From an uncultured Bacteroidales bacterium (lineage in GTDB: Bacteria > Bacteroidota > Bacteroidia > Bacteroidales > VadinHA17): DNA of 64,000 bases. A model generated the notes under the pieces. It was not told the origin of the DNA. It saw nothing but the letters and a program-made list of their open reading frames with translations, and ran no database searches. Position numbers and translations under genes: made by a program. Below, piece after piece: positions 2,400-42,264 of the stretch. Numbering within the stretch: position 1 is the first letter of the stretch; each line of letters starts with the position of its first letter. The DNA lies in contig CAWHIG010000016.1 of assembly GCA_963829255.1 (NCBI GenBank), forward strand, positions 10,145 to 74,144, read 5' to 3'.

Positions 2400-4121
2400 T
2401 CATAATAATACATTTCTTTTCTCAAAATGAGTAAAGAATATCTTTTTATCTGCAATATCAGCATTATCTTTTAACAGCTTTTCATATAAGTTGATAAGAG
2501 ACGGCGATTTGCATGGGAGATTAATCGCCTCTGTATCATCAGCCTGGTATACAAGTTTCGACCTGTTCCTGATCTCATCCTTTGAGGGACTGAAAGGTAA
2601 ACCTGCCCCATGTACGCATCCACCCTGACAAGTCATCACTTCAATCAGGTCATACTTTTTACCGGCTGCCATGGAAACTTTTAACTTTGCCAGACCTGTC
2701 AGACCATCGACAACTGCGACGTTAACCCCGTTGTCTCCTACCATAACTGAAATTTCCCTGAATGTTCCTCCCGATCGCAGCTTTTTAAAAATCTGTTTAT
2801 CAGGCTCTTTCTTCATTTTTTGATAATGATATGTCCTGATGACACCTTCAGCCATCCCTCCCGATACTTCAGCCATTATGGCGGCTGAGCTTCTTCCGGA
2901 CAGAGGTTCATCTGCCGGTTCATGTTCAATGTTTGAAGTGTCGATGCCGTATAACCTTATAAGCCTGGCCAGTTCTCTCACTGTCAAAACAGTATCCACA
3001 TCACTTATACCTTTTCTCATCATCCCGTCGCGACGGGCTTCAAATTTCATTGCCATGCAGGGAGTTGCAGATACAGAAAAGATCTCTTCAGGTTTAACCT
3101 GCAGCTGATCCGCTACCAGAGTCTTGATCAGTACGCCGGTGATCTGTTGCGGAGATTTTACGGTCGAGAGTTGAGGAATAAGCGAAGGAATAAATTGCTC
3201 AGCATATTTTACCCATGCAGGACAGGCAGAGATATACAAAGGGGTATCTGACTTATTCTCAATTCTGCCGGAGAGCTGATCTGCGATCTCGGATATACAA
3301 ACATCAGTACCTAATCCTGTTTTAAAGACCTTATCAAAACCAATTTTACGCAGGATGGCATTGAGAATCTTATCAAATTCCCTGGTATATCTCATCCCAA
3401 GTTCCTCGGCAATTCCGTAAACAACCATGGATGAATACTGAATGACCTTTACTATTTCAGGTTTATTAAGATATTCCTGTACTTCTGTAATATTGTGTTT
3501 TTCATGAAGAGCCCCGGTAGGGCAAACAAGTACACACTGGCCGCAATGAATACAGCTTGAAAAGTTAAAGTCCCTGTCCATGGCGGCGCCAACATGTGTT
3601 TCTCTTCCTTTATTAATAAAATCAAGTGATGTTGCAGTAATTACCTCCTCACAGACTCTGACGCATCGCCCACAGAGTATGCATTTGGACAATTCCCGTA
3701 TAATTGCCGGGCTGGATTGGTCGAGACGTGGTTTTATTTTTCTTCCGCGTATGCGCCTCTCTCGTATATTGAGCTCTTCAGCAAGCCTTTGAAGTTCACA
3801 ATTCAGGTTCCGGTCGCAGTACAGGCAATCGTCAGGATGGTTTGACAGCAGCAGTTCGACTATAGTTTTTCTTGCGGTAATTACCCTTGGGGAGTGTGTT
3901 TTAATTTTCATCCATTCCTCAACCGGCTGTGAGCAGGCTGTTACAAGACGGTCACGTCCTTCGACTTCAACAACACACATTCTACAGGCACCTGTAGGTG
4001 TAAACTCCTTCATTCTGCAAAGCGTCGGTATAATAATTCCGTTGCGATTAAGGGCGGAAAGGATTGTTTCACCCTTTTCGGCTTTGATCTTCTTATTATT
4101 TACCTGTAGTGTAAAAAGCAT
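2400..4121 (-). CDS. hydA: [FeFe]-hydrogenase large subunit, HydA-like (NuoEF-coupled architecture) with non-canonical H-cluster motifs
   Basis: 573-aa ORF. The N-terminus is 2Fe-2S ferredoxin-like, followed by HPDDCLYCDRNLNC and two 4Fe-4S motifs (CILCGRCVRVC, CIHCGQCVLVCP). The H-domain motifs are ISACPAW, TPCMAMKFE and EVMTCQGGCVHGAGLP, with a small-subunit-like C-terminal tail. It starts 5 nt after hydB ends and stops 18 nt before the next gene. Confidence 0.85.
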   Translation of the reverse strand: MLFTLQVNNKKIKAEKGETILSALNRNGIIIPTLCRMKEFTPTGACRMCVVEVEGRDRLVTACSQPVEEWMKIKTHSPRVITARKTIVELLLSNHPDDCLYCDRNLNCELQRLAEELNIRERRIRGRKIKPRLDQSSPAIIRELSKCILCGRCVRVCEEVITATSLDFINKGRETHVGAAMDRDFNFSSCIHCGQCVLVCPTGALHEKHNITEVQEYLNKPEIVKVIQYSSMVVYGIAEELGMRYTREFDKILNAILRKIGFDKVFKTGLGTDVCISEIADQLSGRIENKSDTPLYISACPAWVKYAEQFIPSLIPQLSTVKSPQQITGVLIKTLVADQLQVKPEEIFSVSATPCMAMKFEARRDGMMRKGISDVDTVLTVRELARLIRLYGIDTSNIEHEPADEPLSGRSSAAIMAEVSGGMAEGVIRTYHYQKMKKEPDKQIFKKLRSGGTFREISVMVGDNGVNVAVVDGLTGLAKLKVSMAAGKKYDLIEVMTCQGGCVHGAGLPFSPSKDEIRNRSKLVYQADDTEAINLPCKSPSLINLYEKLLKDNADIADKKIFFTHFEKRNVLL

Positions 4122-6079: not shown

Positions 6080-6574
6080 TTAGTCGTTTTCAATAATGTA
6101 CTTTAATTTTTTTATCAGTTCAGGAAGTTGCTCCGGTTTCACATGAGTATGATATTCGCCGTTCACATTGATAACCGGGCCATTACAACAGCCCCCCATG
6201 CATGAGACGATCTCATAGCTGAAATTGCCATCCCGTGTTGTCAGTCCTGGTAATACTCCAGTCTCTTCCCTTATTTTATTAATGATTGATTGTGATCCGT
6301 TAAGGAAGCATGAGGTGCCATTGCAGATCCTGATCTGAATTTTTCCTGAGGGAATGAACCTGAACCTGTCATAAAATGTAGCCAGGCCATAGATCTTTGT
6401 AGTGCTCAGACCTAAAAAGCTCCCTGTTTTAACAATAGCTTCCTCAGAGAGATAACCCAGATTGTCCTGTATTTCCTGAAGCAAAGGAATAAGATCTTCC
6501 CTTTTACCCTGTTTGTATTTTTTAAGAATTATTTCAAGATCAGTCGCCATCCAGATTATATTAAAGAATTTCAA
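6080..6574 (-). CDS. hydC: NuoE-like thioredoxin-fold [2Fe-2S] subunit (HydC-like)
   Basis: 164-aa ORF with a Cx4C...Cx3C pattern (ICNGTSCFLNG ... SCMGGCCNGP). An alternative start is the Met at 6550 (MATDLEIILKKY). Confidence 0.85.
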   Translation of the reverse strand: MKFFNIIWMATDLEIILKKYKQGKREDLIPLLQEIQDNLGYLSEEAIVKTGSFLGLSTTKIYGLATFYDRFRFIPSGKIQIRICNGTSCFLNGSQSIINKIREETGVLPGLTTRDGNFSYEIVSCMGGCCNGPVINVNGEYHTHVKPEQLPELIKKLKYIIEND

Positions 6575-6589
6575 TACAAAGATAATTGA

Positions 6590-6634
6590 TTTTATTGTTA
6601 ATAAATAAACATTGTTATTTTATTAACAATAAAA
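6590..6634. promoter_or_regulatory. Perfect 16-bp inverted repeat carrying three ATTGTTA/TAACAAT half-sites, immediately upstream of hydC; candidate repressor operator with Rex-like geometry
   Basis: TTTTATTGTTAATAAA (6590-6605) is the exact reverse complement of TTTATTAACAATAAAA (6619-6634). An inner ATTGTTA (6611-6617) and TAACAAT (6624-6630) are spaced by 6 nt. This is the same layout as TTGTGA-N6-TCACAA. Confidence 0.4.
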
Positions 6635-6855: not shown

Positions 6856-7110
6856 ATGGCTCAAAGAATTGAGATGCAAATCTGTCTTGGAAGCTCCTGT
6901 TTTTCAAGAGGTAACAAAGACGTCGTAATGTTCATAAGAGAATATCTCAGGAAAAATCATCTTGATGACAAAGTTGTTTTTAAAGGTGCCCGATGTATGG
7001 GTCTTTGCAGTAATGGACCAAATCTGAGTATAAACGGCGTAACCCTTGAAGGGGTTACTCTTTCAAAAATAGAGAGTATACTTGAAAAAGAATTTGCCGG
7101 AATAGTATAA
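6856..7110 (+). CDS. Small thioredoxin-like [2Fe-2S] ferredoxin (NuoE-fold)
   Basis: 84-aa ORF with ICLGSSCFSRGN ... ARCMGLCSNGP, the same Cx4C/Cx3C spacing as hydC. It is the first gene of the plus-strand unit. Confidence 0.8.
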   Translation: MAQRIEMQICLGSSCFSRGNKDVVMFIREYLRKNHLDDKVVFKGARCMGLCSNGPNLSINGVTLEGVTLSKIESILEKEFAGIV

Positions 7111-7245: not shown

Positions 7246-9132
7246 ATGGCAAACAGAAAGCCTGTTCTTTACATAAATGATGAAAAGTGCAGAAATTCAT
7301 ATTCCTGCGTACGAGTCTGCCCTGTAAACGCAATTGAGGTTAAACCCCAAAAGGCGCATCCGTTCATTCTTCCCGACAGATGCATCGGATGTGGTTTATG
7401 CTATGTTTCATGCACACCACACGCAATAGAATTCCGCGATTCAAAAGAATCAGTTAAGAAACTGTTATCATCCGGAAGAAAAACCGCAGCTCTTATTGAG
7501 CCAAGCATTGCATCGGAATTTGATGATATAACAGATTACCGGAAGTTCGTTGCTATGATAAGGTCGCTGGGTTTTGACTATGTTCACGAAGATTCGTTCG
7601 GAGTCGATCTGATAGCCGCTGCCTATGCAAAACTTTTCTTAAAAGCTGAAGGTAAATATCTGATCACGGCAAACTGCCCTTCAATTGTCAAACTTATTGA
7701 GAAGTTTCACCCCGAACTGGTTCCTAACCTTGCACCACTTGTCTCGCCTATTATAGCTACTGCAATGGTTGTAAAAAAGCTATACGGACCTGAGGTAGCT
7801 ACAGTTCAGATTGGCCCATGTATTGATGCAAAAGATGAATCGCTTATCTATGATTCAGATAAGCTTGTTGACGGAGTACTGACTTTTGTGGAACTGAGAG
7901 AGCTTTTTGATGAATTCAAGATCCAGGAAAGACTGGTAAAGATGTCCGATTTTGATCCGCCTCATGGAAATTGGGGGGCTCTCTACCCTCTGCCAGCAGG
8001 GATTATTCAGGCAGGAGGTATAAAGCGCGATATGGTTTCGAGCAGGGTAATTACAGCTTCCGGAAAAGAAGAAATCCTTGAAGCAATTAATGATTTCGAC
8101 AAATATATTGACACGATACAACACCATTTTAACTTATTCTTTTGCCATGGATGCCTGCTCGGTCCGGGAATGCAACATCATAATGAACGATTCAGGAGAA
8201 GAGCACTGGTGCGGAAGTATGCTGAAAAGAGAGTGGGCAAACTTGATAAAGCTCTCTGGCAAAAAAATATGGAAAAATGGTCAAAGCTGGATTTTTCAAG
8301 AGGTTTTACACCCGATGATCAGAGAATACCTGAACCGCCGGAAGAAGCTATTTTGGAGGTGCTTAAAATCATCGGCAAAAACAGCCCCGATGAGGAGATC
8401 AACTGTGGTGCCTGTGGCTATCTCTCTTGTCGTGAATTTGCTTCAACAGTTGCAAAAGGACTTGCGGTTCCGGAAATGTGCCATACCTTCAATCTTCGTA
8501 ATAAACAGGAATATATTGAGACTCTCCGGCAAACAAACAGGAAACTGGCTGAAACAAAAAAAGCCTTAAAAGAATCAGAAGAACTGGCACGCAGGGAAAA
8601 GGAGATTGCTCAAAGCACTTCAGATATGATGAACAACATGCTCGAAAAGCTTCCTTCCGGAGTGGTAATTGTTGATAATAATCTAAAAATACTTCATTCA
8701 AATCAAAGCTTTATTAACATAATCGGAGAGGATGCAAAAGCCATATCAGATGTAATTCCCGGTCTTGCCGGTGCAGATATCAAGACCCTCATCCCCTTCA
8801 ACATTTATAATATGTTCACATTTGTAATAAAGGAAGATGAACCTGTTGTAAGCAAAGATGTTCATTTTGAAGATAAAATGCTGAATATTTCCATCTTTCC
8901 GATAAGAAAGAACAAGATCTGCGGAGCAATAATCCGCGATCTGTATTCACCTGAAGTACAGGGGGAAGAGGTAACAAACAGAGTCAGTGAGGTGATTGAT
9001 AAAAACCTTGAAATGGTTCAAAAGATAGGATTCCTGCTTGGAGAAGGTGCATCTGAAACCGAGCAGATGCTGAACTCAATAATTGAATCGTACAAAACAA
9101 AAAAAGTGAATCTGAAAAACAACCTCAAATAA
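7246..9132 (+). CDS. Putative sensory [FeFe]-hydrogenase-like protein (HydS-type) with C-terminal PAS-like domain
   Basis: 628-aa ORF. Ferredoxin motifs are CRNSYSCVRVCP (3 Cys) and CIGCGLCYVSC. H-domain variants are P1 TANCPS, P2 GPCIDAKDE and P3 NLFFCHGCLLGPG. It has CGACGYLSCREFASTVAKGLAVPEMC, a coiled coil, then a PAS-like segment (LPSGVVIVDNNLKILHSNQSFINIIG...). Confidence 0.85.
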   Translation: MANRKPVLYINDEKCRNSYSCVRVCPVNAIEVKPQKAHPFILPDRCIGCGLCYVSCTPHAIEFRDSKESVKKLLSSGRKTAALIEPSIASEFDDITDYRKFVAMIRSLGFDYVHEDSFGVDLIAAAYAKLFLKAEGKYLITANCPSIVKLIEKFHPELVPNLAPLVSPIIATAMVVKKLYGPEVATVQIGPCIDAKDESLIYDSDKLVDGVLTFVELRELFDEFKIQERLVKMSDFDPPHGNWGALYPLPAGIIQAGGIKRDMVSSRVITASGKEEILEAINDFDKYIDTIQHHFNLFFCHGCLLGPGMQHHNERFRRRALVRKYAEKRVGKLDKALWQKNMEKWSKLDFSRGFTPDDQRIPEPPEEAILEVLKIIGKNSPDEEINCGACGYLSCREFASTVAKGLAVPEMCHTFNLRNKQEYIETLRQTNRKLAETKKALKESEELARREKEIAQSTSDMMNNMLEKLPSGVVIVDNNLKILHSNQSFINIIGEDAKAISDVIPGLAGADIKTLIPFNIYNMFTFVIKEDEPVVSKDVHFEDKMLNISIFPIRKNKICGAIIRDLYSPEVQGEEVTNRVSEVIDKNLEMVQKIGFLLGEGASETEQMLNSIIESYKTKKVNLKNNLK

Positions 9133-9138
9133 TCTTAA

Positions 9139-10284
9139 GTGAACAGGAACTTTTTTATAGAGGTTAACAGCCAGCAAAGGAACTTCGACGGGGAGAGGAT
9201 CAGCGGCGATGTATTTCTGTACAGGTATATTAAAGAAGAAGACAGGGTTGTTGCCGTATTATCCGATGGTATGGGACATGGGGTTAAGGCAAATATTCTT
9301 GCAACCCTTACGGCAACAATGGCCATAAATTTTACACGCGAACATAAGGAGGTTGACCGTATCGCTGAGATTATAATGAATACACTTCCGGTATGCAGCG
9401 AAAGAAAGATCAGTTATTCAACTTTTACAATTATAGATATTGAAAACAGCGGCAGGACAACAATACTGGAATATGATAATCCATCCTGTATTGTTTTAAG
9501 AGGGAGCCAGATATTTGATCCTTCATGGAAAAAAGTAGTGCTCGAGAAAGGTAAAAACTCAGGTAAGGTTCTGAAAACATGCACATTTTTGCCTGAGAAA
9601 GAAGACAGAATTATCTTCTGCTCTGATGGTGTTTCACAAAGCGGAATGGGAAGTGAACCATTTCCTTTTGGCTGGGAAAGGGACAGCATTGCCACTTATG
9701 CTGCATCGCTTGTTACAAGTGAAGCATCAATTTCTGCCAATATGCTTGCCGGAAAGATTGTTACGATGGCTCATAAAAACGACAACTATAAAGCCCGTGA
9801 TGATATAAGCTGTGCAACAATCTATTTCCGTGAACCCCGTAAATTAATTATCTGTACAGGTCCCCCATACGAGAAGGAAAAGGACAAAGATCTGGCCGCA
9901 AAAGTAGTTGCATATAAAGGAAAAGTGATCCTCTGCGGAGGTACAACAGCAGATATAGTTGCCCGGGAATTAAACAGGACTATTATTGATGAACTTATAT
10001 TCGAAGATCCGGAACTGCCGCCGGAAAGTTTCCTGGAAGGCATTGATCTGGTGACCGAAGGAATCCTGACACTTCAAAAGGTCAACGAAATATTGAAAAC
10101 TTATAATAACAGTGTAAAACTCGGAAAAGGACCGGCAGATAAGATCGTAAGGCTGATTATGGAGAGCGATGAGATTCACTTCGTTATCGGTACCAGGATC
10201 AATATCGCACATCAGGATCCTAATCTGCCTGTTGAACTTGAGATCAGGACGAACTGTAGTAAAGCGCATTGCGCGTCTGCTTGA
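9139..10284 (+). CDS. PP2C/SpoIIE-family serine phosphatase with an extra C-terminal domain
   Basis: 381-aa ORF with a GTG start 6 nt after the sensor stop. SpoIIE-type motifs are ISGDVFLY, VLSDGMGHGVKANILA and IFCSDGV. The 3' end may continue in the +1 frame to 10324 (see findings). Confidence 0.8.
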   Translation: MNRNFFIEVNSQQRNFDGERISGDVFLYRYIKEEDRVVAVLSDGMGHGVKANILATLTATMAINFTREHKEVDRIAEIIMNTLPVCSERKISYSTFTIIDIENSGRTTILEYDNPSCIVLRGSQIFDPSWKKVVLEKGKNSGKVLKTCTFLPEKEDRIIFCSDGVSQSGMGSEPFPFGWERDSIATYAASLVTSEASISANMLAGKIVTMAHKNDNYKARDDISCATIYFREPRKLIICTGPPYEKEKDKDLAAKVVAYKGKVILCGGTTADIVARELNRTIIDELIFEDPELPPESFLEGIDLVTEGILTLQKVNEILKTYNNSVKLGKGPADKIVRLIMESDEIHFVIGTRINIAHQDPNLPVELEIRTNCSKAHCASA

Positions 10285-15396: not shown

Positions 15397-18300
15397 TTAT
15401 ATCCTCACACCCAGAATTGTAACATCGTCAATCTGATCTGCAGAGCCTTTCCATGTTTCGAACTCACTCTCCAGTATTCTATGTTGTTCAGCCATAGGCC
15501 TGTAGTAGATCTCCGTAATAAGTTTCTTCAGGTTATATTTCATGTATTTGGACATATATGGTCCGCCAAACTGATCAGCGAATCCATCTGTAAATATGTA
15601 GATTGTATCTCCTTTTTGTACATTGATCTCGTAATTAGTGAAAGTATCCTTTTCACCATAGTAAATACCTATTGGCATCCTGTCGCCTCTGTATTCCTTG
15701 AACTCTCCTCCCTGGAAAATGAAGAGCGTATTATAAGCTCCGGAAAATTCAAGTATTTTCCTGTCCTTATGCAGGATGCAAAAGGCTACATCCATACCAT
15801 CATTGGCTTCTCCCTCTTTGCCGGTCTGGTGCATAGACGTTTTAATCTTTTCACGCAACAGATTTAATACAGTATTTGCTTTAAGGTTTTCATTATTGGT
15901 GATTACCTCATCTAATGTTGATATCCCAAGCGTACTCATAAAGGCACCCGGAACGCCATGACCGGTACAATCGGCAACCGTAAAGTAAATATGTTTTTCA
16001 TCTTCACCGATCCAGTAGAAATCACCGCTTACAATATCACGGGGTTTAAATATTATAAAATATTCCGAAAATGAATCCCTGAAATGTTCAGACTCCGGAA
16101 GCATCGCCATCTGTATCCTGCTTGCATATTCAATACTTGAAGTAATCTCCTGTTTTTGAGCCTCAATTTCGGTAGTGCGCTCTTTTACCCTGGTCTCCAA
16201 TATCCGTTTGTCTTTTTTAAGCTGCCTTTCCCTGAATCTGATAACTCCTATTATTACAACCAGTATGGCACACACAACAACTATGTAAAAAAAGGTCGTT
16301 TGTGTAAAAGGCGCTTCAATAGCAAATCCAACCCTTTTGGGTTCACTTATGTTCCCCCATATATCTTTCGCCCTTACCTGAAGTATATATTTACCAGGCT
16401 TTATCATCAGGGTTATCGTATTGTCGTATGACCACTTTGACCATTCCGTCATAACCTTGTCAACAATATATTGATATTGAGTCGAATTCTTCTTAAGATA
16501 TCCAGGAGCTACCAGATCAAAATATACAGTATTATCTCCGCTTCCGAATACTATATCGGAAAAGCTGAAATTAATCCCTTTTGCATTGGAGATACTTCTG
16601 ATGAACAGGTTTATGTCTGTTTTTACGGAAGGAATTTTGTTGCGGACAATTCTGTAAAGCAGATTGTCTCCGCTGATAACCCAGATATTGTCTTTATCGG
16701 TATATATTGAATTAAGATTATCAAAAATTTTAAGAAGTGCCTTATCATTATAGTCAATTCTGCCTGCAGAACTGATATTGATCCATTCGTCTTCGGTCTT
16801 AACCCATGGAATTTCCTGCTGCGATAACACATATTTTATCCTTGCACTGTTATTTGAAAATTCCTTTCTGTATTCTTTAAAGGAATCAAGATTACTGTCA
16901 TAATAACTGACACCTGATAATGTAAAAGCAAATATCGTATCGTTAACATATTCAACTATATACCTCTGTGGCAAATTACTAATACTATACACTTTGGTAT
17001 TCCCGGAAAAGATTCCGTTTTCAAGACTTATTCTGAACAGGATATCATCGCTCCCTGCCCAGATAGTATTCTCATCCGTTGATACTATTGAATAGAGTGG
17101 ATGTGTAAATGTTTTATCGGGATAAACTGCCACCCAACCATTCTTATTATCATGTGTGATATAAAAGTAACCGTCTGTCGTGGCCACATAGTACTTGTTA
17201 TCCCTTGATTTTGAACTAATGTTATTAATATACCTGTTACTTACAACAGCTTTGGCAACGTGGCCTGAAATAATATAAAGGCCTCTGTTTGTTGAAGCAA
17301 GAATATCATTTCCGGCAGAGATCATCTGCTTACATTTTTCATTCAGTCCATCAATTTTGGTATATACATAATTAATTGATTTGAGTCTGCCGGCTACCTT
17401 TTTGAAATATTTTGGTTCCGGTAACCTGATTGCCGGAGGAGTAATTATTTGCACTGGTTGTTCCTGAACAACCGGTGCCACCGGCTTCTTTCCAAATATT
17501 CTGGATAAAATACCTTTCCTTGTTTTCTGTGGCTCCGGAGTTACCTGTTGAACTGGCTTGTTCTGGATTACCGGCTGGATTGGCTTTTCAACTACTTCTT
17601 CATTTTTTACAAGTACCTCTACCTGAGCATATTTTTTAACTTCTTTCAGATAAAACACTCCCTCACTCGTTGCTACATATAATTCATTATTATGCCAGAG
17701 TGAGGCAATGAGGTTGCCCTTCAGTCCCGGATAAATGCTGAAATTGCCGACCGGTAATCGCAAATCTGCACGCGTAAGCCCATACTGATGGGAAAACCAC
17801 AGACCATAATTGTTATCACATCCCCAGTGCAAAAATTTCATCATCGGGTAATCCATTTATATAATTGATCGCATATTTTAGTTTCCCGTTCTGCTTTTCA
17901 ACAACCAGAGCTCCTCCATCAAGAGTTGAAAATGCATATAGACTGTCAGATATTAATAACCCGTCCGACAGAATATTTTGCCGGAGATAACCTTCATCCT
18001 TTATAGGGTAATCATAGAATTTTATCCCGTCAAAAAGAGAAAGTTCTCCATTGCTTTTTCCTAAAAGTACAAGATTCTTGTTATAGGGAAGACTGAAAAG
18101 GATCTCCTCATTTTCAAGCATATAACCAGTAACAATAGGGAACAAGGTATCACTTTCAAGCCTGTAGAGTCCTTTTGACAGAGACATTTATGAAGGTATT
18201 TTTAGGAGTAATAAACATCCCCGTGAAAGGTCTGTTTCCTTTCGGTCTGAGTCGTAATTCAAACTTTTCTGACTTTAAATTATGCCTGCTGATACTTTGT

Positions 18301-38923: not shown

Positions 38924-41296
38924 TTATACTTCTTCATGCTCAGTCCTCCTGATTATCTCATTCTGCAGATCCTCTCCAAGATCGTTGAAATAATCACTGT
39001 AACCTGCCACACGAACAATAAGGTCCCTGTATCGCTCCGGATGTAATTGCGCATCCTTCAGAGTTTGCACATTAACTACATTAAACTGAATATGATGACC
39101 ATCCAGACTGAAATAGCTGCGGATCAACGCCGTAAGCTTTTCATAACTCTCCTCATCTTCAAAAAAGGATGGAGAAAACTTTTGATTTAACAGGGTGCCT
39201 CCTGTTCTGAAGATGGTCAATCTTTGAGGCTGATTTAATGACAGATGTCGGGCCTTCATGATCAACACCCTGAAAAGGTGAAATACCTTCTGAAAGAGGC
39301 AGATAAGCATTCCGGCCATCAGCAGTGGCACCGATAACACTTCCAAAATAGACATGAGAAGTTGTAGGCAGCATATTTATACGGTGGACTCCCCCTCTCG
39401 AATTTGGCTGGCCATTAACCGCATCATAATAGATCTCAAAGACTGTAACTGCCTGTTGATCTGCATAATCATCATCATTGCCGAACTTGGGTGTTTCATA
39501 TACTATCTGGTACTGAATCTGTTCGTACCCTTTGAAATCTGCATCAAGAGCTTTGTTAAACTCTTCCCAGCTAAATGTTTTGTTATCATAAATATTATAA
39601 CGGATTGATGTAAGCATGTCGGTGATACTTCCCAGACCAACACCCTGAATATATGAAGTATTGTAACGTGGCTCCGCCACTATTGTAATCCCTGCCGTTG
39701 GAAATACAATCTTCTACCAGTAAAGATAAAAATGGTACTGGCAACCAATCGGCAAACGTCTTTTCAATAACATTGTTACCCTTTATCTTAATCGCAGCGA
39801 GGTAATTTACCTGCAGTTTAAATGCTTCAATGACATCTTCAAAAGTCTTGTAGTCGTTAGAGTTACCAGTCTTCAGCCCGACAAGTTGATTAGTCCTCCT
39901 GTCATATCCGTTGTTAAGAGTCAGCTCCAGAACTTTCGGAAGATTGAAGTACCCTGTCAGCCAGTATGCCTCCGTACCGAAAGCTCCGGTTTCAACACAG
40001 CCCGATGCACCACCGTTCCGGGCATCAATTATATTTTTCCCCTGCCTGAGCAGTTCCTCGATTATTGCATCTGTATTGAAGCATGAAGGTTGGCCGAATC
40101 CGGTTTTTATTATATCAAGTGCCTTATGAATAAATCTGTCAGGACTGCCTTTGGAGATCTGTATCATCGAACTGGGCTGAAGTATCCGCATCTCCTTTAT
40201 GACATCAAGAAGAATATAGGACATCTCATTAACTGCATCGGTACCATCAGGTTTCACTCCACCAAGATTAATAAGACAAAAGTCGGTGTAGGTATTGCTT
40301 TCACTTGCTGTTACACCCATTTTTGGTGGTGAGGGATGATTATTGAATTTTACCCAGAAACAGCCAAGAAGATCATCGAGTTCACACTCGGAAAGCGTAC
40401 CGGACTGCTGTTTCCCTTTTATAAACCGGATAAAGATGCTGATCGAGTCTGCCCGGATTAAAAGAGTCCCAGGGATTTAGTTCAGTTATAACCCCCAGAT
40501 GTATGAACCAGTAATGCTGAAGCATTTCATGAACAGTCTCGGGAGCATAGGCAGGAACTTTGCGACATACGGCTGCCATCTTTATCAACTCCTCTTTTCT
40601 TTCCGAATCTTTCTCCTCTGCGGTAAGCTTATCCAGCTCATCGGCATGACGATTCGCGTACATTATTATTGCATTGCACGTAATATTCATTGCTCTGAGC
40701 TCCTCCATCTTTTCGTATGCCTGGCTGTCAGTAAAAAAATTAAGAGCCTCAATAGCCTCGCTTATCTCCTCTTTTACAGCCAGAAACCCTGTTTTAAACA
40801 TTCTGTAACCCAATACTGTATGTCCGGGGGCGCGCTGTTCCTGGAATTCAGTAAACACGCCTGCATTATAGGCATTCAGCCATTCAGTTGTCATCAGTGA
40901 CATTATCCTGTCGCGGTTGCTGTTCCCTTTCCAGAAGGGAATAATTTCCTTTTCATAAATGTTCTTCACCTCATCATCTACTCTGAAGAAGACTTTTTCC
41001 CTTGAATCAAGGATCGCAAGATCCTTCAGGGAATGAAGGCTTATTTCAGGATAGGTTGGAGTTTCCTTTGGCGCCGGCCCTCTCTCCCCTACTATCAGTT
41101 CGCCTTCGTTGATGCAAATTTTCTTATTCTTCAGAAGATATTCAAAAGCCTTTGCCCTTTTAACAGGGGCTGACAATTCACCTGCTTCATCACTCTTATA
41201 AAACTCTGTGATAAGCAATGCTCTCTCTGCGCTTATCTTTTCGACTGCATTCAGGCTCTGATCTCTTAATTTTTTAACTCTTTCTGATAAAATCAT
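38924..41296 (-). pseudogene. Glycyl-radical enzyme (PFL superfamily, GCVE eliminase-type active site), split by three frame shifts
   Basis: Four consecutive ORFs (40382..41395, 39595..40320, 39159..39680, 38924..39355) together give about 790 aa. The catalytic loop is GGASGCVETGA and the glycyl-radical motif is VRVAGYSDYF. Breaks are near 40417-40420 (T4), about 39670 and about 39205. The likely start is the Met at 41296. Confidence 0.85.
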
Positions 41297-41328
41297 AACT
41301 ATACAATTACTGATTTCAAATATTATGT

Positions 41329-41456
41329 TTTCTTCCTTTGTGTTCCTTTGTGACATCCTTGTGTTCCTTCGTGGTAAGAAAAAATTTAACCACAAAGGAC
41401 ACGAAGGGATTCACAAAGGAATTATTATAAGAACGTTGCATGCAACGTCCCTACAC
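41329..41456. repeat. Composite intergenic element: CACAAAG-type palindrome plus ACGTTGCATGCAACGT palindrome
   Basis: cttcctttgtgttcctttgtga ... tttaaccacaaaggacacgaaggg, then gaacgttgcatgcaacgtccctac (41431-41454). Confidence 0.8.
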
Positions 41457-41462
41457 ATTTTC

Positions 41463-42264
41463 TCATCCCCCGATTTTTACCTTAATTCCTGTCTCCTCGA
41501 AAAATATCTTTATTTTCTGCATTTTCCCCTTGTCAGGCGGCTCAACTCCCTCCATCCTGTAAGGAATATTGAATCTTTTATATTTAGAAGACCCTATCTT
41601 ATGAAATGGCAAGAGATTGATCTTTTTAACCGAACTGGTTTTTGTCTCTGTAATGAACTGTTTCAGTTTCTCAAGATGATCCTGATCGTCATTAAATCCC
41701 GGAACAACAGGTATCCGTACCATAACGTCCTTTCCGCTATTTATTAAAAGCCGGTAATTATCCAGTATTCCTAGAATTAGAAACTCCTGTGGATTCCAAA
41801 TGCTTCGCTTCATCAAGATGCTTTATATCGAAGAGGAAAAGGTCAGTGAACGGAATGATTGATTTAAAATTCTCAGCTGAGGAATATCCCGAAGTATCAA
41901 CAGCTGTATGATATCCATTTGACTTACAGGTCATTAAAGCTTCACGAAGGAATTCAATCTGTACCATCGGTTCTCCTCCTGAAAATGTAATTCCACCTCC
42001 TGATTGATTAATGAAAACTTTCTCTTTATCAAGGATCTCAATAATGCTTTCAGTTGAATAATATTTCCCAACCTCCTCGCTCTTACTGAATTCCTTGTCA
42101 CCGATTCTGTTCGTCCGGATCACAGTTTCCTGTGAAGAAGATATCCCTTCCGGATTATGGCACCACATGCAGCTCAGAGGGCATCCCTTCATGAAAAATG
42201 TCACCCTTATCCCCGGACCATCATGGATGGAATATTTTTTAACGCTGAAAATGAGTCCTTTCAT
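41463..42264 (-). pseudogene. Glycyl-radical enzyme activating protein (radical SAM), split by one frame shift
   Basis: ORF 41758..42264 has GCPLSCMWCHNPE (CxxxCxxC). ORF 41463..41816 continues the family. The break is near 41776 (...TGVSN then LGILDNYRLL). Confidence 0.8.

Follow-up and report, generated by a model that had tools for sequence, protein, structure and literature searches.

The closest known relatives of the protein dealt with here are the HydA subunits from those [FeFe]-hydrogenases of group A3 (HydABC) that belong to Thermoanaerobacter kivui (8a6t), Acetobacterium woodii (7q4v) and Thermotoga maritima (7p5h), which carry a [2Fe-2S] cluster, a His-ligated [4Fe-4S] cluster, two further [4Fe-4S] clusters and the H-domain in this order and have HydB and HydC as partners; in A3 operons a sensor kinase gene downstream is common. 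In the H-domain of Clostridium pasteurianum CpI the proton pathway runs through C299-E279-S319-E282-R286, with an entrance at S320/H569/E278, and the distal cyanide of the H-cluster is hydrogen-bonded by K358 (K228 in CrHydA1), a residue described as ‘extremely well conserved’ whose variants do not assemble the H-cluster (PMC9516953). C299A, E279 and E282 variants of CpI, as well as K228 variants of CrHydA1, are severely impaired. Here we describe HydA*, a HydA-like protein encoded in a 64,000-nucleotide stretch of an uncultured Bacteroidales bacterium of the VadinHA17 lineage (GenBank assembly GCA_963829255.1, contig CAWHIG010000016.1, positions 10,145 to 74,144 of the forward strand; hereafter the window). 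HydA* shares with the group A3 enzymes the domain order, the HydB and HydC partners, the gene order, the downstream sensor kinase and its best sequence and fold matches, but departs from them by C299A, E279I, E282Q, M353T, K358M, F417A, G418E, S232M and a change of GGGQP to GAGLP, as well as by an NA[KR]E motif and lost N-terminal [2Fe-2S] cysteines in HydB, a faster evolving H-domain and sub-cut-off scores with curated hydrogenase models. We favour, with a probability of roughly 0.45, the reading that in uncultured Bacteroidales HydA* acts as hydrogenase subunit within a HydABC-type (Bfu) complex, and that it is a slow enzyme with a retuned H-cluster in which protons would be rerouted through Glu418.

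Pfam assigned Fer2_4, NADH-G_4Fe-4S_3, 2x[4Fe-4S] and Fe_hyd_lg_C domains to HydA*, and hydB and hydC lie directly upstream, in agreement with a first-pass annotation of the window, made from the letters alone, that had proposed the full domain order of a NuoEF-coupled HydA. All ligands of the accessory Fe-S clusters are present and are invariant in the clade of close relatives described below. A phmmer search of all PDB sequences returned T. kivui HydA1 first (E = 1.7e-123), followed by A. woodii HydA1, T. maritima HydA and CpI. The alignment to CpI is gap-free from residue 206 to ~470, and that to T. kivui HydA1 is gap-free around the L1 motif; because the alignment is ungapped, the HydA* numbering equals CpI numbering over this range. 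The register that the first-pass annotation had set by eye thus held, and no Cys299 or Glu279/Glu282 was restored by the HMMER alignment. An AlphaFold run on a shallow alignment of close relatives reached a mean predicted local distance difference test (pLDDT) score of 57.8 only, and a diverse alignment was used instead; the structure prediction that had been proposed as a check then gave a confident, intact HydA fold (AlphaFold2; pLDDT 91.9, predicted template modelling score 0.91), which Foldseek matched to T. kivui HydA (8a6t_A) with a template modelling (TM) score of 0.94 and to CpI with 0.92. By its Pfam domains, its Fe-S ligands and its TM score to 8a6t_A, HydA* therefore has the M3 architecture of group A3 HydA.

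The probability that a pseudogene, a faulty assembly or a by-eye alignment wrong by chance lies behind HydA* is practically negligible; nothing was found in favour of it, and the intact 573-codon frame, 192 distinct orthologues with the same states, nonsynonymous divergence (dN) far below synonymous divergence (dS) and the ungapped HMMER alignment rule such an artefact out. A sequencing error at position 299 is likewise rejected, as the change from Ala (GCC) to Cys takes two bases.

At the active site, L1 of HydA* reads ISACPAW, L2 TPCMAMKFE and L3 EVMTCQGGCVHGAGLP, none of which matches the group A signatures TSC[CS]PxW, MPCxxKxxE and ExMxCxxGCxxGGGQP, though the cysteine ligands stay. The first-pass annotation had already named C299A, E279I, E282Q, M353T, the loss of the APSVR strand and an altered L3, each of which the HMMER alignment reproduced, and had rightly seen that the four H-cluster cysteines are kept (C300, C355, C498 and C502 for CpI C300, C355, C499 and C503); R286, S319 and M497 are also unchanged. 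In L2, however, M353T stood but the lysine had been misread: the segment is T353-P-C355-M-A-M358-K359-F-E361, so that its sixth residue is Met, the motif lysine K358 is replaced and the adjacent K359 remains. All of the variant positions listed were real, but the list was incomplete, as it missed K358M, the most radical of the changes, the replacement of F417 by Ala and of G418 by Glu (HMMER alignment), and a probable H569F. The latter, together with H565 to Asp and the retention of E278 and of a Thr at S320, comes from aligning the C-terminal tail with MAFFT, a less secure alignment. The CpI segment A230-P231-S232-V233-R234 has become S-S-M-V-V, including S232M; GGGQP in L3 has become GAGLP; and T356M also alters the cavity. 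As judged from the aligned residues, the canonical proton wire is abolished in HydA* (A299, I279, Q282 and probably H569F), with S319 and R/K286 present. The departure from canon is larger than this loss because variants of K358 fail to assemble the H-cluster. M353T by itself is not exotic, because C. pasteurianum CpII, which is active with an altered bias, naturally carries Thr at this position as HydA* does. Single HydA* changes also occur in engineered variants of known structure (C299A in 6gly, E282Q in 6gm8); these are crippled, single-change laboratory proteins, whereas the HydA* set is fixed and conserved and comes with the new invariant residues E418, T268 and T272.

HydA* has the architecture, partners and fold of HydABC, and relatives are labelled ‘iron-only hydrogenase group A’ by JGI, which would suit an ordinary, fast electron-bifurcating or -confurcating group A3 hydrogenase with neutral substitutions. 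We hold this to be very improbable, given the severe impairment of the corresponding CpI and CrHydA1 variants and given that HydA* scored 570.5 bits against a cut-off of 765 with NF040763 (group A6), and 345.8 against 405.95 with TIGR02512 (group A). Moreover, among 113 full-length sequences contained in the best 150 representatives at 50% identity, 52 were fully canonical, and all 52 of these keep C299, M353, K358, E279 and F417-G418-V423.

Relatives of HydA* are numerous. In a word-indexed search, over 120 clusters shared 85-95% identity, and every one of them came from metagenomes or from metagenome-assembled genomes (MAGs) of Bacteroidia. When one genome was scanned for each species, at least 197 genomes had a relative. 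Fens, peat, lake sediment and digesters were the sources of the best 80 of these, nearly all of them MAGs labelled Bacteroidales or Bacteroidota, while a single one bore the label Chloroflexota. The suggestion of an undescribed subgroup made in the first-pass annotation fits, because HydA* scores below the curated NCBI group A cut-offs and belongs to a large Bacteroidales clade; NCBI names relatives at the domain level only.

Conservation was assessed in an alignment of 192 distinct clade sequences with at least 70% identity. Position 299 was Ala in 175, Val in 8, Ser in 6, Ile in 2 and Thr in 1, and position 353 was Thr in 183 and Ser in 9. Met occupied position 358 in 190/192, Glu position 418 in 191/192 (Asp in the remaining one), Ala position 417 in 183/192 and Gln position 282 in 178/192, and M496 was present in 187/192. 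Other positions of the former pathway drift (279 = I/L/V/T/M; 286 = K/R/N), and position 423 is L/M/I/F, with S420 and E494 present. The four cysteines, K359, E361, Q325/Q326, G421/G422, T268 and T272 were invariant or nearly so. The codons turn over synonymously at 299 (GCC/GCA/GCT/GCG) and at 418 (GAA/GAG). Mean entropy was 0.32 for the pocket positions as against 0.68 for the H-domain; the pocket is thus more conserved than the whole H-domain, with T268, T272, T353, M358, E418, Q325, K359 and E361 essentially invariant, which favours a retuned enzyme. Pairwise dN was 0.043 in the N-terminal Fe-S domain, 0.168 in the HydA* H-domain and 0.12 in the H-domain of the adjoining sensor, and dS was saturated near 2, so that dN/dS is a rough measure only; because dN is low while dS is saturated, all domains are under purifying selection.

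In an exhaustive HMMER scan of 1.84 billion representatives the clade was covered by one cluster (77% identity), and the next ones had at most 45% identity. The case of HydA* is not isolated: 35 of the 113 full-length representatives lack Cys299 but have C300, and also lose K358, E279/E282 and F417-G418-V423 variously, while K359 and the cysteines persist. In a crude neighbour-joining tree, which is prone to long-branch attraction, the clade falls in a long-branched grade between the HydS outgroups from the window and canonical group A. The sensor kinase encoded next to hydA* served as bait in metagenomes and gave 80 loci (42-93% identity), 57 of which carry a HydA gene upstream on the same strand. 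By class counts read off by eye from the table of these 57 loci, about 32 HydAs are fully canonical (TSC[CS]PxW, MPCTAKKFE, E279/E282, F-G-V), about nine lack E279 or E282 although C299 is still there (two of these with Glu423), four have Asp299 (L112, L120, L128 and L167; two with Glu423), one has Ser299/Asn358, and 11 are of the HydA* type (A299, M/G358, A-[E/D] at 417-418), down to 62% identity. Glu423 occurs in L110, L111, L120 and L167. The HydAs with Asp299 and/or Glu423 (L110, L111, L112, L120, L128 and L167) are otherwise canonical in L2 and L3, and by these residues they are natural intermediates. Because about 32 of the 57 sensor-linked HydAs are fully canonical, the cassette of an A3 enzyme plus a C1 sensor kinase, which has also been reported for Hydrogenedentota, is a common and presumably ancestral design; the pattern of residues across the survey indicates that HydA has been remodelled stepwise in some lineages, most radically in the HydA* clade.

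On the favoured reading, HydA* would descend from a canonical group A3 HydA in a hydC-hydB-hydA-hydS(kinase) cassette; its best sequence matches are A3 HydAs. It would still receive the [2Fe] subcluster and, by analogy with the Ala299/Thr-Ser353 enzymes of groups C and D, would turn over H2 slowly, in keeping with the slow or mechanistically different flavin-coupled enzyme that the first-pass annotation had put forward as a possibility. Protons might reach the amine of the azadithiolate ligand (adt), to which the F417 position is adjacent (PMC10055695), via Glu418 and then Ser420 and Glu494, the side chain of Glu418 filling the space freed by F417A. Cyanide anchoring may have passed to K359, one residue further along the predicted helix, or to the new hydroxyls of T268, T272 and T353. 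The HydA*BC complex, with a co-adapted HydB (NA[KR]E), could then serve as a low-rate redox valve linked to NAD(H) and ferredoxin and expressed under the control of Rex and of H2 sensors, possibly biased towards H2 uptake.

In the searchable literature we found replacement of Cys299 described for the sensory groups C and D only, in line with the first-pass remark that loss of the pathway is reported for sensory HydS and not for a hydCBA subunit; we found there no HydABC-embedded HydA lacking Cys299 or Lys358 and no characterised member of the clade. In groups C and D, Ala at 299 is the rule, the H-cluster is bound and turnover is slow, and Ser or Thr at 353 is characteristic of group D. The combination of A299 with T/S353 is thus that of an H-cluster-binding, low-rate active group, which by analogy favours a retuned enzyme. 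In TamHydS of Thermoanaerobacter mathranii (group D), A137 corresponds to C299, S191 to M353, L291 to M497 and E122 to E282 (PMC11803613, PMC10407848), and from the residue pairs given in these two papers we derived that E289 corresponds to E495, S249 to T420 and E252 to V423. TamHydS and HydA* share Ala at 299, a hydroxyl residue at 353 and the absence of the canonical proton pathway. The route proposed for TamHydS uses the 420-423 loop and Glu495; HydA* has Ser420, Glu494 and an acid on that loop, so that a Glu418 route would lie on the same side of the cluster as Glu252-Ser249-Glu289. The TamHydS relay Glu252 aligns, however, with V423, which is Leu/Met in HydA*, where the Glu is at 418 instead, and M497, which is Leu in TamHydS, is kept in HydA*. 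We found no literature report of TamHydS without K358. TamHydS is further of the M2e type, without a NuoG-like N-terminus, with a C-terminal Cx2Cx4Cx16C and without a HydBC partner, unlike HydA*. TmHydS of T. maritima (group C) resembles HydA* in its Ala299, in the small size of residue 353 and in lacking the canonical proton pathway, and its activity is low; an alternative relay at the F417 position has been discussed. TmHydS has reportedly retained the residues forming hydrogen bonds to the [2Fe] ligands, whereas HydA* lacks K358. HydA* accordingly agrees with groups C and D in Cys299 (mostly Ala there) and Met353 (Gly/Ser/Thr there), but has none of their M2-type N-terminus, Fe-S linker with Cx2Cx4Cx16C and PAS or kinase output domains, features of a kind found in the adjoining HydS-HK. 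The acids placed around adt in sister cassettes (D299, E423) would also favour a retuned enzyme.

Several observations weigh against this reading. Position 358 is fixed as Met, although K228 variants of CrHydA1 fail in H-cluster assembly, and K358M together with G418E makes the pocket lose a positive and gain a negative charge beside an anionic cofactor. The geometry of Glu418 is deduced from its place in the sequence, and an acidic excess at 299/418/423 across all non-canonical representatives was not clearly above composition expectation, so the argument for Glu418 is confined to its invariance within the clade. Within the clade, dN of the HydA* H-domain is about four times that of the N-terminal Fe-S domain. 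In the representative set the relation of the two domains is reversed: the H-domain is the better conserved of the two in 89% of canonical pairs (43% vs 35.5% identity) and the less conserved one in 99% of non-canonical pairs (25.6% vs 41.3%), where, both sets having been chosen by similarity to the query, the contrast counts and not the absolute values. Five deep non-canonical representatives (P0124, P0125, P0129, P0132 and P0133) were examined. Their cassettes are 34-36% identical to the window in the HydA* H-domain, 51-62% in the Fe-S domain and 58-63% in the sensor H-domain, so that, of all parts, the HydA* H-domain differs most among orthologues of the deep cassettes. P354, E361 and P324 vary there too; of the [2Fe]-anchoring set, K358 is lost while E361, Q325, P324, M497 and K359 are kept in the clade and lost piecemeal in deeper relatives. 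Finally, a HydG encoded downstream in many relatives may serve the two sensors alone.

Because K358 variants fail in H-cluster assembly, the main rival, a serious though less probable alternative that the first-pass annotation did not consider, is that HydA* is a [2Fe]-less pseudo-hydrogenase that holds only the [4Fe-4S] part and acts as a NuoG-like electron-transfer or scaffold subunit of a HydBC module; the H2 chemistry of the locus would then fall to the HydS proteins or to other hydrogenases. The fixed K358M and the reversed domain conservation speak for it, as do the cavity changes F417A, G418E, S232M, T356M and GGGQP to GAGLP, the scores below the NCBIfam hydrogenase cut-offs, and the fate of L1 and L2, which are scrambled in deep orthologous cassettes (STLCPSW/QTCTSGKYL, ISSCPAV/TPCTAAKAE) while the four cysteines stay and while the sensor motifs remain invariant over an equal distance. 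Nar1/NARF-type proteins, eukaryotic cytosolic Fe-S assembly factors, have an H-domain fold with the cluster cysteines but without the L1-L3 signatures. They are mentioned as an outgroup (PMC6085437) and would offer a precedent for a [2Fe]-less descendant, though one without a NuoG-like N-terminus or HydBC partners. On the other side, the clade pocket (Q325, M496, E361, Glu418) shows stronger conservation than the remaining H-domain, which is a weak point as buried residues are conserved anyway; the A299/T353 pattern mimics that of cofactor-binding sensory enzymes; K359, which follows the K358 position by one residue on a predicted helix, is invariant; a PAS-type sensory hydrogenase encoded nearby has the same C-x3-K pattern; and Rex control suggests a metabolic role.

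Changes in HydB co-occur with those in the HydA* pocket. The best PDB matches of the hydB product are bifurcating HydB/Bfu subunits, its eight C-terminal cysteines are invariant, and the Bfu core (the FMN/NADH domain, [4Fe-4S] cluster and C-terminal 2x[4Fe-4S] domain of HydB and the [2Fe-2S] cluster of HydC) is present, though with altered flavin-site motifs. HydBs of canonical cassettes carry GRGGGGFPT, CNADEGDPGAF, YIRAEYPLA and GAGAFVCGEETAL and four cysteines in the N-terminal thioredoxin-like domain, as against GRSGGGY[LP]T, CNA[K/R]ESDPGAF, F[MI]RSGSDHA and EPGAFVCGEETAL in the clade of the window. The flavin/NAD-site motifs in residues ~201-330 thus differ from those of all canonical cassettes examined: NADE[GS] has become NA[KR]E (K in 68 and R in 4 of 72 sequences; NAKES in the window), GAGAF has become EPGAF and AEYPL has become SGSDH. 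In residues 43-90, three of the four [2Fe-2S] cysteines are gone (SSGTSSIIAG and GCNGPATFEP vs GTCGxxAG and GCxGxCxxEP); the same N-terminal loss is described for StnB and HndC, both of which still bifurcate. We know of no precedent for an Asp to Lys change beside the flavin. The motifs suggest that the HydB flavin site was retuned together with the H-cluster. In one deep cassette (L087, 5957-7920), HydB was called as 593 amino acids plus a separate ORF of 60 amino acids, with no ferredoxin-domain match recorded, and a loss or frameshift of its C-terminal 2x[4Fe-4S] domain is possible.

The features of the locus are collected in Table 1. Its seven-gene layout around hydA* recurs in 54 of the 80 best related genomes, the exceptions being mostly contig ends. 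No hydE, hydF or hydG gene was found within the window, which ends 419 nucleotides past hydS-HK. In 52 relatives with 8 kb of downstream DNA, hydS-HK is followed in each case (52/52) by a response regulator (RR), an RR-histidine kinase hybrid (RR/HK) and Rex, and further by RibF (51/52), HydG (34/52; identified with TIGR03955 at 485 bits, where the cut-off is 312) and, in 33/52, a protein resembling TM1266. The presence of HydG within 8 kb downstream in 34/52 and of a Rex-box-like operator in 51/52 relatives favours a retuned HydA*.

Table 1. Features of the HydA* locus (window coordinates)
Feature	Position	Strand	Basis
hydA* (573-aa M3-type HydA-like subunit, remodelled H-cluster pocket)	2400..4121	-	ORF list with ATG start; Pfam; PDB phmmer
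L3 segment M496-T-C498-Q-G-G-C502 (CpI M497, C499, C503)	2616..2636	-	clade alignment, cysteines invariant
Ala417-Glu418 codons (CpI Phe417-Gly418), candidate replacement proton relay	2868..2873	-	alignment
Met358 codon ATG (CpI Lys358, distal-cyanide anchor; Lys228 in CrHydA1)	3048..3050	-	alignment
Thr353 codon ACT (CpI Met353)	3063..3065	-	alignment, codon read-out
Ala299 codon GCC (proton-relay Cys299 of CpI)	3225..3227	-	ungapped HMMER alignment, codon read-out
Ile279 to Gln282 codons (Glu279, Glu282 of CpI proton pathway)	3276..3287	-	alignment, codon read-out
hydB (NuoF-like flavoprotein, C-terminal 2x[4Fe-4S], degenerate N-terminal thioredoxin-like domain), 644 aa	4127..6061	-	Pfam
hydC (NuoE-like [2Fe-2S] subunit)	6080..6574	-	PF01257, E 6.5e-44
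Rex-box-like near-perfect palindrome TTGTTATTTTATTAACAA, ~40 bp upstream of hydC	6612..6629		positional conservation
hydS-HK (group-C-type sensory H-domain, Fe-S linker Cx2Cx4Cx16C, HisKA, HATPase), 653 aa	420..2381	-	Pfam
thioredoxin-like [2Fe-2S] protein, 84 aa, first gene of divergent sensor unit	6856..7110	+	PF01257
hydS-PAS-type sensory hydrogenase, group C3-like	7246..9132	+	Fe_hyd_lg_C + FeS domain
SpoIIE/PP2C phosphatase, partner of PAS-type sensor	9139..10284	+	PF07228, conserved synteny

The adjoining sensor kinase gene begins 18 nucleotides downstream of hydA* and overlaps it by 4 nucleotides in L083 and L088. Its H-domain has Asp at the Cys299 position and K358, E361 and F417 in place, and its three motifs, including SSDCP[SA]I and GPC[VI]AKKxE, are unchanged even in orthologues of 55-59% identity; within the cassette, HydS-HK may thus hold the more competent site for H2. 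The close spacing, the gene order HydC-HydB-HydA*-HydS_HK-RR-RR/HK-Rex, which is kept in four of the five deep lineages and in 52/52 full clade loci, and the standing of the sensor H-domain, with these residues, as the best-conserved hydrogenase domain of the cassette would also suit a signalling complex, in which HydA*BC docks the HydS kinase and connects its sensory H-cluster with the pools of NAD(H) and ferredoxin, HydA* itself not reacting with H2; the kinase output would then combine H2 pressure with the redox state of the cell. RibF follows next in three of the four deep cassettes, and in the fifth lineage (P0124) the contig stops right after hydA*, so that only HydC-HydB-HydA* and the divergent thioredoxin-like gene are visible. 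Such a complex is distinctly improbable in our view, and so to the same degree is its variant, a four-subunit redox-integrating hydrogen sensor in which a degenerate HydA*, having given up H2 turnover, would link the H-cluster of HydS-HK electrically to the flavin module of HydBC, and whose phosphorelay (RR, RR/HK) would report H2 pressure relative to NADH/NAD+ and the ferredoxin pools. If true, this would identify an electron partner of an [FeFe] sensory hydrogenase for the first time. The same gene order is found with a canonical HydA in most other lineages (~32/57 loci), and because canonical HydA shares it, the adjacency reflects the ordinary design of an A3 enzyme plus a C1 sensor and requires no complex; canonical controls that lack a sensor number just two, a very small sample. 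The argument that non-canonical HydA always comes with HydS-HK and that the two must therefore form a complex was rejected as proof, since most HydS-HK cassettes have a canonical HydA. The PAS-type sensor of the divergent unit carries TANCPSI and GPC[IL]D[ANS]KDE, with no Lys at 358 and an invariant K359, and so has the C-x3-K spacing in common with HydA*.

The palindrome upstream of hydC resembles Rex operators. TTGT[TG]A-N6-T[AC]ACAA was present at the equivalent position in 51/52 related loci, and 51 of its 67 occurrences in 1.25 Mb fall within that one 500-bp bin. A search of the window with the classical Rex consensus TTGTGAAN4TTCACAA, three mismatches allowed, gave a chance-level count; only the positional conservation of TTGTTA-N6-TAACAA is meaningful. 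The palindrome is a candidate operator of the cassette-encoded Rex, and the two together would fit a role of a retuned HydA*BC in the re-oxidation of NADH.

HydA* is a conserved, widespread and uncharacterised HydA lineage inside HydABC, in which a natural clade under selection dispenses with Cys299 and Lys358, near-essential residues according to the literature, within a standard HydABC scaffold. Together with the D299/E423 intermediates it provides a series for testing second-sphere control of H-cluster assembly, proton delivery and catalytic bias, and the change of NADE to NA[KR]E in HydB is relevant to the balance that Bfu enzymes strike between their two branches. HydA* genes are abundant in Bacteroidales of fens, peat, sediment and digesters, and homology pipelines call them ‘group A’ hydrogenases; surveys thus count as an ordinary hydrogen producer a protein that, from its residues, is probably slow or differently wired. 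If it is slow, uptake-biased or non-catalytic, the H2-production potential assigned to the host organisms is overstated. Surveys that filter on the L1-L3 motifs (PMC6085437) would have discarded sequences of this type. Another HydA of low activity is the ‘A3 M3’ HydA of Bacteroides thetaiotaomicron, for which 0.22% of CrHydA1 activity and ~4 transcripts per million are reported; cluster look-ups of the nearest representatives, made to relate it to the HydA* type, gave metagenome proteins only.

Some minor observations concern gene calls in the window. The listed hydC ORF begins at a TTG (164 amino acids), whereas relatives begin at an ATG that gives 156 amino acids, as in the orthologue of locus L008; the true hydC start is probably the ATG at 6550. 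A pyruvate formate-lyase gene at 39159-41395 (minus strand) appears to be split into at least two ORFs, of which 40382-41395 covers positions 2-294 and 39595-40320 positions 328-543 of PF02901, and which reflect either a pseudogene or frameshift errors of the assembly; a pyruvate formate-lyase activating enzyme is encoded at 41758-42264. A second SpoIIE/PP2C-domain protein of 819 amino acids is encoded at 15397-17856 (minus strand), ~5 kb from the sensor unit, and its N-terminal 600 residues have no Pfam match.

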